From: an uncultured Phycisphaerales bacterium
Lineage (GTDB): Bacteria; Planctomycetota; Phycisphaerae; Tepidisphaerales; Tepidisphaeraceae
Assembly (NCBI GenBank): GCA_963755915.1
Contig: CAVWLP010000002.1
Coordinates: 736,001-800,000, forward strand
Direction of reading: 5' to 3'
Length of the DNA stretch: 64,000 nt
In this document: positions 1,078-11,798 of the stretch, in pieces
Layout: the number at the start of each line of letters is the position of its first letter
Position numbering within the stretch: position 1 is the stretch's first letter
Translations under genes and position numbers: made by a program
Notes under the pieces: generated by a model
Seen by the model: only the letters and a program-made list of their open reading frames with translations
Databases searched by the model: none
Told to the model about the DNA's origin: nothing

Positions 1078-1685
1078 TCTGCCGCAATTCCCTTACCGCC
1101 TCCCCTGGTTCTTCTGATGGTGCGACATGTTTTTGCCCTGGGCGCACATTCGCGCACGATAAAAGGCTGAATTCAAATGCAATGCAGGGAGGAGGCGAAA
1201 ACCCCACGAGATTAGTTGCATGGGCGCCCCAAGCGGTTTTCGCCTCCTCCCCGCACCCCTCCTCCACTTTCCGGCTTCCCCTAACCGTCCAATCCAAAAA
1301 AAGGCAAAAGACTGGGGCGTTTGTCGGGGCTGTCGCACTCGCTTTGCGAGCGATCGCGCATGCGCGCTACCCTGCACACGACTCAAAGAAGACGCGCAAC
1401 CCCGCGCAACTGCTTCGCTATTTTGCCTTTCGGCTTGGACGGTTAGGGGAAGCGGAAAGAGGGTGGAGGGGGTGCGGGGGAGGCGGGAGAAAAACCTTGG
1501 GGCCGTATGGGTTTGCTCCCGCCTCCCCTGCATTGCATTTGCATTTGAGGAGATCGCTAAGTTGTATCCAGATTAGAAAAATACCGGGCCGTCGGCCACG
1601 TATTCCGAGAGTAGCCTTCGCGGAAGCCCTCCGGAACTTTTCGGCCCACCCGCGCTTGCCCTGGGGGCCCCGATGATCCGCCGTA
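1074..1685. mobile_element. Non-coding inserted element of about 600 bp with inverted structured arms (copy A)
   Basis: Arms 1174-1309 (+) and 1421-1547 (-) are imperfect inverted copies; flanked by ATGATCTGCCGCA (1074) and ATGATCCGCCGTA (1673); homologous to 11277-11640. Confidence 0.7.
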
Positions 1686-10771: not shown

Positions 10772-11185
10772 ATGAACGAGCAGTTTGCCTATTCGGTCAA
10801 TGGCGAACATTATCGCGGCGCCTACGCGACGCGCGAAGAAGCCCTCGCCGAGGCACTTGCCGAGGCCCGCCGCGGCGACGATTCGCCCCCCATGGTCTAT
10901 GTCGCCCGCCGCGTGCCTGGCGATGCGATGGCCTCCGGCCACGCCCGGGCCGTCATCGGCAACATCTGCTCCCGCGCCCGCGAAGAGTTCGGCGATACCG
11001 CCTCGTCATACCTCACCGGCGTTTCCCGGCAACAAGTCGAAAAGCTCGACAAAGCCCTTACTGCCGCGATCGAATCCTGGCTAAGCGCCAATGCCCTCTC
11101 ACCAACGTTCTTCACTTACGAGGCCATCAGCTCGCATCCGGTTTCGTATGGTTTTGCGCAGCAGACCGTAGGCGCAGAGTCCTGA
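10772..11185 (+). CDS. Hypothetical protein
   Basis: AAGGAG RBS, open frame, YRGAYATREEALAEA motif. Confidence 0.65.
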   Translation: MNEQFAYSVNGEHYRGAYATREEALAEALAEARRGDDSPPMVYVARRVPGDAMASGHARAVIGNICSRAREEFGDTASSYLTGVSRQQVEKLDKALTAAIESWLSANALSPTFFTYEAISSHPVSYGFAQQTVGAES

Positions 11186-11276
11186 AAATCCCCTTGATTC
11201 TTGCGCCGGAACGCAATCCTGCTGACGACCCCACACTTTTTTAATGCGTTGGCCAAAGGGCGCTCGTTTAAAGACG

Positions 11277-11640
11277 AAATGCAAATGCAATGCGGGCGGG
11301 ACGAGGGGGCACCATATAGGGCCCCCCTTCGGTCTGAGCTCAGGGTCGAAGACAAAAGTTTCCCCCTCGCCCCTCCCGCACCCTCCCCACTCCCCTTCCT
11401 TTTCCCCTCAACGCTCCCCCTAAAATGCATACACGACAGCATCCACGCAATCGTGTGCCCCAACGCTCTCGTGGACGAAGCGAGACAATTCTTGTCGAGA
11501 GGCCTCCGCATTTTGCCTTTGGGGTGGGACGGTTAGGGGAAGTCGGAAAGTGGAAGAGGGGTGCGGGGAGGAGGCGAAAACCGCTTGGGGCCTTATGGGG
11601 GTTTCGCCTCCTCCCTGCATTGCATTTGTATTTGTATTTA
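11277..11640. repeat. Inverted pair of ~130-nt structured arms (copy B of the element at 1074-1685)
   Basis: Reverse complement of 11511-11640 is nearly identical to 1174-1309; arm 11277-11425 is a diverged copy. Confidence 0.85.
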
Positions 11641-11798
11641 AAAAAGAGCCAGCCACTTCCTCCACGAACTCATAAAAGGTGTCCAGCCATTAGGGCGGCC
11701 GTCTTCCGCATTTTTCCGCCTAAATCCGAATGCCCACCCCGCCGACCTTGCCCCCGACCGTGCGCACCGATATTTTCGTGCCATAGTTGGAGGCTTCA

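Follow-up and report, generated by a model that had tools for sequence, protein, structure and literature searches.

A dispersed repeat family in Tepidisphaeraceae whose arms carry a candidate third DNA strand covarying with the hairpin stem

Introduction

Whether DNA triple helices form and act in living bacteria is an unsettled question. The best-studied bacterial case is TMECO/BoxC of Escherichia coli, an intergenic and G/C-rich repeat with a 3-nt turn; in the part of its description used here, it folds into a triplex in the test tube as a single strand, and its copies are too uniform for an analysis of covariation (Holder et al., 2015; PMC4666352). Five inverted pairs are described there, always combining type A with type B. 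The repeat marks unstable loci, which differ from strain to strain and show partial deletions where palindromic pairs occur (PMC4666352). The same source defines four classes of bacterial intrastrand triplex motif (PMC4666352). Here we analyze a repeat family recognized in a stretch of 64,000 nt (hereafter the window) from an uncultured Phycisphaerales bacterium of the family Tepidisphaeraceae (Planctomycetota; GenBank assembly GCA_963755915.1, contig CAVWLP010000002.1, positions 736,001–800,000 of the forward strand). The window holds two copies, each a pair of hairpin arms in inverted orientation, which an initial annotation of the sequence had proposed as a new structured repeat or non-coding RNA (ncRNA) family.

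Two other kinds of small repeat are relevant. The unit of repetitive extragenic palindromic (REP) elements has a conserved GTAG-type head; these elements protect 3′ ends or end transcription in enterobacterial operons, and elsewhere they are targets of insertion sequences (ISs). Miniature inverted-repeat transposable elements (MITEs) are exemplified by Correia and ERIC. In the literature on repeats of Planctomycetes and Tepidisphaera and on bacterial intrastrand triplex repeats, PMC4666352 was the sole relevant item found.

Arm Architecture and Covariation of the Hairpin

The four arms had been placed at positions 1174–1309 (+), 1421–1547 (−), 11277–11425 (+), and 11511–11640 (−) of the window and assigned one common architecture; on re-reading, the positions, the architecture, and the inward orientation of the arms at both loci were borne out. 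Every arm runs from AAATGC hexamers through a 21-bp stem (starting with TGC and ending with GCA) and a C-rich tract to TTCCCCT(A/C)A. The terminus AAAGGCAAAA was present in three of them, the exception being the arm at 11277–11425. When folded as DNA, the other three arms were more stable than their shuffles (z = −4.1 to −5.1; no shuffle among 200 was as good). No excess stability was seen for the arm at 11277–11425 (z = −1.4, 17 of 200 shuffles as good), which has two mismatches in its stem and a nested palindrome in its loop.

Compensatory change in the stem, first noticed among these four arms, was confirmed on 93 arms (92 distinct) from this and related genomes, in which 19 of the 21 pairs were altered on both sides. 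The alignment was made with a covariance model built from 13 arms, and two reverse-strand rows were included. Paired cells amounted to 91.8%; shuffling lowered this share to 78.6 ± 0.4% and sliding of the partners to 67.7% or less, and on none of five covariation measures did any of 500 shuffles attain the observed value. These figures carry two caveats, as the alignment was guided by the structure and the arms have common descent. RNAalifold on a plain MAFFT alignment (69 of 103 arms) returned merely 10 pairs, with the stem types misaligned, and the covariance-model alignment was used instead. The two-sided changes across the 93 arms support well the view that pairing is under selection.

A Candidate Third Strand and its Triplet Code

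The C-rich tract, which the initial annotation had described as a pyrimidine tract, is the 3′ half of the stem read backwards or, in other terms, the 5′ purine half complemented in parallel orientation. The stem and tract pairs are GGGGAGGCGGGAGA with CCCCTCCACCCTCT, GGAGGGGCGAGGGG with CCTCCCCACTCCCC, and GGGAGGAGGCGAGA with CCCTCCTCCACTCT. The covariance model aligns the tract by sequence and so breaks its register; the third strand was instead compared by anchored ungapped alignment. Stem positions 5–18 were scored on the G-rich strand by Watson-Crick pairing together with the purine-motif rule, which was counted as G.GC, A.AT or T.AT, plus T at the single C-G inversion, T.CG being the preferred natural triplet at such an inversion.

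Among 65 distinct arms, 824 of 910 positions fitted this rule (762 if the C-G inversion was not counted), and the median unbroken run was 12 triplets. A shift of the register by one or two bases in either direction reduced the match to 47–54%. Eighty arms contained 36 distinct purine strands, which fell into 10 clusters, and the four largest clusters (64 arms) were perfect at 14 of 14 positions. With a single representative per cluster, the match was 0.929 against 0.67 ± 0.047 with permuted partners, and none of 5000 permutations attained it. The match between stem and tract must be maintained, because no polymerase copies a sequence reversed without complementing it. The tract is thus best read not as a spacer but as a third strand whose changes go along with those of the stem. 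Given this covariation, each arm would be an intrastrand triplex motif, and the selected structure looks three-stranded rather than a plain hairpin.

This three-strand covariation is the notable result of the analysis. Dozens of natural variants, in which hairpin and third strand change together, are the type of comparative evidence that established RNA structures, and they supply ready-made compensatory and disruptive sequences for biophysics. No comparable evolutionary evidence for a DNA triplex in bacteria was found in the literature. All four arms of the window read R2 (third strand), TGC, R1 (purine strand), loop, and Y (pyrimidine strand) on the G-rich strand, which is the block order of class I. 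Their triplets also agreed with a rule of 6–15 positions and at most one mismatch, the one C-G inversion per stem being taken as the allowed mismatch.

Several observations weigh against a triplex. The turn is 3 nt, and the hairpin loop ranges from 9 to 127 nt; loops of 1–6 nt define the motifs in the ITxF search, so that the search, as defined in the part of the paper used here, would not return these arms (PMC4666352). Because the arms share their descent, the triplet counts do not represent independent events. The count omits 23 of 103 arms, in which no clean stem was available owing to insertions, truncations or failed anchors. T at the inversion is at best a weak natural triplet: the abstract of PMC9757063 states that no natural nucleotide recognizes C-G, and a passage of that paper reports an interaction of C-G with T as well when the third strand is antiparallel. 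For TMECO/BoxC, the experiments recounted in the part used here detected neither a triplex in double-stranded DNA nor protection from dimethyl sulfate in vivo (PMC4666352).

A competing fold also has to be considered, since a canonical four-run G-quadruplex motif lies within the same G-rich R2-TGC-R1 segment in 76 of 103 arms. That a G-quadruplex on the G-rich strand, with an i-motif on the C-rich strand, is the selected fold instead of a triplex has very little probability, however. G runs would suffice for it, and the mirrored A and C/T interruptions in R1 and R2 would be unexplained, as would the retention of a fully complementary pyrimidine strand; 27 of 103 arms have no such motif.

The Folding Strand

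In 37 of 65 arms, stem position 4 is mismatched as A.C if the C-rich strand folds but forms a G.T wobble if the G-rich strand does. Folding programs, which model Watson-Crick pairs, gave the G-rich strand (read outward from the center of the element) the higher stability in all four arms of the window, and the purine-motif code accounted for 824 triplets against 735 for the pyrimidine-motif code, i.e., 89 more. We infer that the G-rich strand is the one that folds. Purine-motif triplexes do not form in RNA, as stated in the part of PMC4666352 used here, and therefore the triplet pattern argues for DNA. Taken together, the triplet pattern and the strand asymmetry would make the G-rich strand, as single-stranded DNA, a better candidate than RNA.

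If the arms acted at the RNA level, read-through transcripts with the C-rich form would fold into a hairpin or triple helix and thereby protect 3′ ends or end transcription. The inward orientation of the arms fits this, since flanking genes read toward the element meet the C-rich form; the loci lie between tandem and convergent as well as divergent open reading frames (ORFs; longest-ORF heuristic, from which no enrichment was drawn), and pyrimidine-motif intrastrand triplexes can form in RNA, according to the same part of PMC4666352. Nevertheless, action at the RNA level is quite improbable. The A.C mismatch at position 4 falls on the very strand that would have to fold, the 89 additional triplets fit the purine-motif code only, and most triplets would be C+.GC with protonated cytosine, for which the source gives acidic conditions on the C-rich strand (PMC4666352). 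Moreover, the first copy in the window lies inside an operon whose downstream permease gene must still be expressed, and neither a terminator-like U tract nor a promoter-like site was found at the element.

For the DNA triplex, the following mechanism is proposed. The G-rich strand, read 5′ to 3′, comprises the third strand R2, the 3-nt TGC turn, the purine strand R1, a loop, the pyrimidine strand Y, and GCATTT-type hexamers. Replication forks, transcription bubbles, and transposition intermediates are examples of settings in which this strand would be single. The 21-bp hairpin would then arise from R1 and Y, and R2 would fold back antiparallel into its major groove with ~14 triplets (G.GC, A.AT or T.AT, and T at the C-G inversion). 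The fold may keep the family alive as a recognition structure for a putative mobilizing enzyme; alternatively, it may impede polymerase and so provoke the local rearrangements observed, in which single arms are gained or lost and insertions come with non-repeated filler.

We propose tentatively, and at somewhat less than an even chance, that selection maintains the arms for a purine-motif DNA triple helix of ~14 triplets which one strand forms on itself. The three-way covariation over ten stem variants would then be evolutionary evidence of a DNA triplex acting in bacteria. The fold would be a signal for copying or rearrangement, through structure-specific recognition or programmed polymerase stalling, and T at the C-G inversion would be part of the natural triplex code.

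Family Distribution and Core Unit

An nhmmer profile of the four arms gave 44 matches in the 6.6-Mb genome (E-values from 1.7e-37 to 8e-4), and thus the arms are no chance resemblance. Eleven adjacent pairs, with a spacing of 15–93 bp, accounted for 22 matches, and two more pairs were divided by a 1.5-kb IS insertion. The claim that the family occurs as inverted doublets stood for 26 of the 44 arms, which formed 13 pairs, all convergent; it did not extend to the other 18 arms, which were solitary. One solitary arm had a degenerate partner, and one single-arm copy was bounded by its own perfect 20-bp terminal repeats. There were few arm sequence types, and the pairs nearly always combined a TTCCCCTCAAC-type with a TTCCCCTAACC-type arm, the exception being the first copy in the window.

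The doublet alignment and the profile delimited a core of ~470–480 bp, which comprises two inward arm modules, usually of two different sequence types, a conserved center, and imperfect 14-bp terminal inverted repeats (consensus pair CTGACGGCCCGACAC and GTGTCGGGCCGTCAG). Conservation reached ~50 bp past each arm, up to these inverted termini.

Searches with the second copy matched all 12 genomes of the same genus and 5 of 12 genomes from other genera sampled in the same family. Outside the family, 1 of 16 genomes was matched, solely through the nested loop palindrome. A scan for the exact pattern in one genome per species (~185,000 bacterial and archaeal genomes) gave 33 loci, each in a metagenome-assembled genome that bears the label Tepidisphaeraceae or Phycisphaerales (Planctomycetota). 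No Rfam family matched across the 64-kb window at the gathering threshold. At a permissive E-value, every match was well below the gathering score; nearly all were models of eukaryotic microRNA precursors, and the others were an unrelated lncRNA region, vertebrate telomerase RNA, alphaproteobacterial sRNA, and snoRNA. The proposal of a new structured repeat family was therefore supported, as the comparison with Rfam gave only sub-threshold hairpin look-alikes.

The further proposal, that the arms are discrete structured ncRNA genes arranged as inverted doublets, fared differently. Such genes would be consistent with the strong covariation in the long stem and with the conserved flanking motifs, and they would be new, as no known family matches. 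They are most improbable in view of the 44 copies, the presence or absence of copies between sister species, the 18 solitary arms, and the copies that were broken by IS insertion, nested palindromes, and arm loss. The failure to find a promoter-like site and the purine-motif pattern, which as noted does not form in RNA (PMC4666352), also stand against ncRNA genes. It is rather probable that the family is a new, lineage-specific version of the intrastrand-triplex repeats, built into a MITE-like unit, and that it is a dispersed DNA repeat and not an RNA gene.

Insertion Polymorphism and Mobility

The first copy lies in an insert of ~590 bp between two ABC-permease genes (Pfam). This insert was common to the genome G001 only and was absent in the other members of the genus. 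In eight relatives whose site was read directly, the permease genes overlap by ATGA or GTGA, and in three more they are adjacent by coordinates. In G001, a 20-bp stretch across the old ATGA gene junction is duplicated perfectly at both ends of the insert, with both reading frames intact; in the source genome, the two ends still agree at 14 of these 20 bases (counted on the printed sequences). The insert also contains ~40 and ~80 bp of non-repeated filler outside the inverted termini (1077–1114 and 1595–1672).

Presence or absence of the core was seen at seven orthologous sites. Three sites (loci L035, L042, and L045) were filled in a sister genome and empty in the source genome, two of them between genes 7–15 bp apart, and three doublets of the source genome were absent from the orthologous sites of G001. 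Two further sites differ by exactly one arm module between the source genome and G001: the second copy in the window is a doublet in the source genome and a single arm in G001, and the reverse was found at position 400,840 of contig 3. It is clear that the element moved or was lost more than once. The presence and absence between sister genomes indicated a DNA element that is dispersed and is, or at least once was, mobile, and not a gene. Four soil-metagenome runs over the same stretch gave short low-depth contigs with no joint across the element, and they were uninformative on the presence/absence alleles.

The terminal inverted repeats expected of a MITE are present. The insertions bear 40–100 bp beyond the inverted termini, and no other copy of this filler was found in the genome or in the examined loci. 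Target duplications were inconsistent: one copy has 8 bp (GGAGTACC), one polymorphic site has ~5–8 bp, five other copies examined have none, and the 20-bp duplication of the first copy in the window lies outside the core termini. No autonomous partner was found among terminus pairs 200–8000 bp apart in the genome, which is 81% complete. The terminus pairs that are real elements were the copies holding an unrelated IS110-family insert, and the rest were chance matches; the number of 15-mer terminus matches with at most three mismatches was about chance level by our own estimate. A link to REP-associated tyrosine transposases (RAYTs) was rejected: neither of two Y1-transposase-like ORFs (PF01797) had an arm match or motif within 1.5 kb.

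An ordinary MITE- or REP-like hairpin repeat, in which the hairpin alone is selected or merely inherited and the mirror tract is a passenger, would account for much of this, including the terminal inverted repeats, the small size, the lack of coding capacity, the 8-bp duplication at one copy, and the presence/absence at orthologous sites. The targeting of the element by an IS also recalls the ISs found on REPs. The E. coli analogue, in the part of its description used here, gave no in vivo triplex (PMC4666352). Such a repeat is still unlikely: a tract that no polymerase can copy from the stem follows it through 10 variant clusters, including the A and single-C positions, and a one-base shift of the register cuts the match from 91% to ~50%. 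We infer that the arms do fold into the triplex, that the folding strand is the G-rich strand of DNA, and that this structure may be what maintains the family.

Organization of the Two Copies in the Window

The features of both copies are listed in Table 1. The initial annotation had extended the second copy over 11164–11766; the conserved unit proved narrower. The duplication proposed for its ends is present (GACCGTAGGCGCA at 11164 and GACCGTGCGCA at 11756), but it is weak and was not kept in the sister genome. The outer flanks claimed to be shared by the two loci are partly element sequence; the right-hand CTTGCCC of the second locus belongs to a block which precedes the ThuA-family gene and which element-free relatives also keep.

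This block, at 11730–11790, consists of CCCCTTGCC and, after ~17 nt, CTATTTTCG, and it was conserved with or without the element (loci L015, L016, and L018–L022). It looks like the promoter of the gene itself. The same intergenic spot holds two unrelated features elsewhere, a CGCGAAG-rich palindrome in G002 and a ~700-bp insert with AT-rich inverted ends in G007.

Table 1. Features of the two repeat copies and of the associated insertion sequence (positions are those of the window unless a contig is named).
Feature	Position	Strand	Remarks
Second copy, conserved core	11223..11692		470 bp; two arm modules, central spacer, inverted termini (imperfect, 14 bp); from doublet alignment and profile
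Second copy, left terminal inverted repeat	11223..11236	+	TGACGACCCCACAC; family consensus CTGACGGCCCGACAC
Second copy, right terminal inverted repeat	11679..11692	+	GTGTCCAGCCATTA, a decayed version of the consensus
Second copy, left arm, AAATGC hexamer repeats	11277..11293	+	Run into the stem base (TGC)
Second copy, left arm, purine strand (5′ stem half)	11291..11311	+	Two changes, each breaking Watson-Crick pair and triplet alike; 13 of 15 triplets of the arm valid (stem positions 4–18)
Second copy, left arm, nested 25-bp palindrome in hairpin loop	11327..11351		Only some family members have it; relatives match this piece alone (query positions 99–133)
Second copy, left arm, pyrimidine Watson-Crick strand (3′ stem half)	11360..11380	+	GCA turn at end
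Second copy, left arm, candidate third-strand tract	11381..11398	+	Mirror image of 3′ stem half; G-rich form on minus strand
Second copy, left arm, conserved TTCCCCTCAAC	11402..11412	+	Variant of the IS-used site found in TTCCCCTAACC-bearing arms
Second copy, central spacer	11413..11526		Conserved among doublets; small internal hairpins
Second copy, right arm, GGACGGTTAGGGGAA	11527..11541	+	Reverse complement of the IS110-family insertion site
Second copy, right arm, G-rich candidate third strand (reverse-Hoogsteen domain R2)	11544..11561	+	13 of 14 triplets of the arm valid (positions 5–18)
Second copy, right arm, TGC turn and hairpin purine strand R1	11562..11582	+	
Second copy, right arm, hairpin pyrimidine strand Y	11599..11619	+	G.T wobble at stem position 4 on plus strand
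Second copy, right arm, hexamer repeats GCATTGCATTTGTATTTGTATTT	11617..11639	+	
First copy, core	1115..1594		480 bp; within the ~590-bp insertion between two ABC-permease genes
First copy, left arm	1183..1273	+	Purine strand 1183–1203, pyrimidine strand 1235–1255, candidate third strand 1256–1273; 14 of 14 triplets valid (positions 5–18)
First copy, right arm, G-rich strand	1455..1532	+	Candidate third strand 1455–1472, turn and purine strand 1473–1493, pyrimidine strand 1512–1532; 13 of 14 triplets valid (positions 5–18)
Weak duplication, left copy	11164..11176	+	Overlaps final codons of upstream ORF; sister genome without it
Weak duplication, right copy	11756..11766	+	In region upstream of ThuA-family gene (Pfam PF06283)
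IS110-family insert, six copies	Contig C2 ~150,152, 276,061, 1,387,619, 1,812,314, 3,857,232; contig C3 ~1,158,315		Loci L068, L070, L079, L080, L086, L092

Insertion Sequence and Nested Repeats

One arm site is the landing pad of an IS110-family element of ~1.5 kb. Its six copies were 99% identical, and all six had inserted at the same arm site in the same orientation (exact 30-mer search). The layout is TTCCCCT, IS, and CTAACCGTCC, with CT on either side; the IS has subterminal inverted repeats. The 379-aa ORF of the IS matched Pfam Transposase_20 (IS116/IS110/IS902; E = 8e-16); no N-terminal IS110 transposase domain was found, and no other Pfam family passed E = 0.001 for this ORF.

The 343-nt IS region downstream of the ORF contains TTCCCCTA (by a k-mer scan) and GGCGGTTAG (by eye). 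These resemble the target halves on opposite strands, and single 8-mer matches of this kind are near chance level. Target halves on opposite strands are the arrangement of a guide (bridge) RNA.

A second, smaller palindromic repeat was also observed, with the form ...CCCCC(A/T)CCCC..CCCTCCCCC GGAGTACC (A/G)GGGG(A/C)GGGG and ~68 strand-hits in the genome (e.g., contig C2 at ~109,530, 278,642, and 293,016). It flanks the arm doublet at C2 3,857,075–3,859,059. One 470-bp core sits in the loop of this palindrome, where the 8 bp GGAGTACC are duplicated, and the left flank recurs at a second core. On its reverse strand, the smaller palindrome resembles TMECO by eye, with a pyrimidine block, a loop, a purine block, a short loop, and a G-rich block.

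The loop palindrome of 25 bp reads CTTCGGTCTGAGCTCAGGGTCGAAG; an exact 19-nt piece of it occurs five times in the genome, four times within an arm loop, and several matches to the loop palindrome alone were present in relatives, G015 among them. Other loop inserts are related TCGAC.AGCTCAGGGC units, and some relatives have a ~60-bp insert within the 3′ stem half. Apparently, even smaller repeats use the single-stranded loops of the arms as sites of insertion. In the intergenic DNA of these soil planctomycetes, small structured repeats insert into each other and into operon junctions.

Comparison with Known Systems

Like MITEs, the element is a small repeat without coding capacity, present in multiple copies; terminal inverted repeats, a long palindrome overall, and polymorphism of insertion are further shared traits. 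In contrast to MITEs, it has no consistent target duplication, its search for an autonomous partner within the genome returned none, and its insertions carry non-repeated filler. To our knowledge, internal triplex motifs are not a feature of MITEs.

With REPs and bacterial interspersed mosaic elements (BIMEs) of enterobacteria, the family shares intergenic palindromic units in alternating orientation, specific linkers, and positions within operons, as these repeats are outlined in the part of PMC4666352 used here. However, the arms are 110–140 bp long rather than 20–40 bp, start with AAATGC hexamers, and include a third-strand tract. They are without a GTAG head, and unlike in REP/RAYT systems, no RAYT-type gene is flanked by arms.

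The R2-TGC-R1 segment is a mirror repeat of a purine-rich tract, as in the mirror repeats of H-DNA (by the definition in PMC4666352, as far as used here). The difference is that the complementary pyrimidine strand is supplied in cis, so that all three strands come from one single strand. Three strands are therefore available without the unpairing of a duplex.

The closest known relatives are BoxC/PIT/TMECO of E. coli and other proteobacteria, which in the part of PMC4666352 used here are, like the present family, multi-copy, strictly intergenic, and G/C-rich, with three consecutive blocks per strand under purine-motif rules, a 3-nt turn between the purine and third strands, common inverted pairs of two types, and loci that vary between close relatives, partial deletions included. 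The TMECO consensus CCCTCNCCC N3-6 GGGNGAGGG N3 GGGNGAGGG does not describe the present arms, whose sequences and block order differ. The order here is third strand, purine, pyrimidine (class I, or class III on the other strand), whereas that of TMECO is pyrimidine, purine, third strand (class II; PMC4666352). The arms have ~14 triplets and hairpin loops of 9 to over 100 nt, compared with 9 triplets and loops of 3–6 nt in TMECO; unlike TMECO, they are set in a ~470-bp unit with terminal inverted repeats, and the phylum differs. Finally, TMECO is described as nearly invariant in the same part of PMC4666352, whereas the family in Tepidisphaeraceae comprises many covarying variants.

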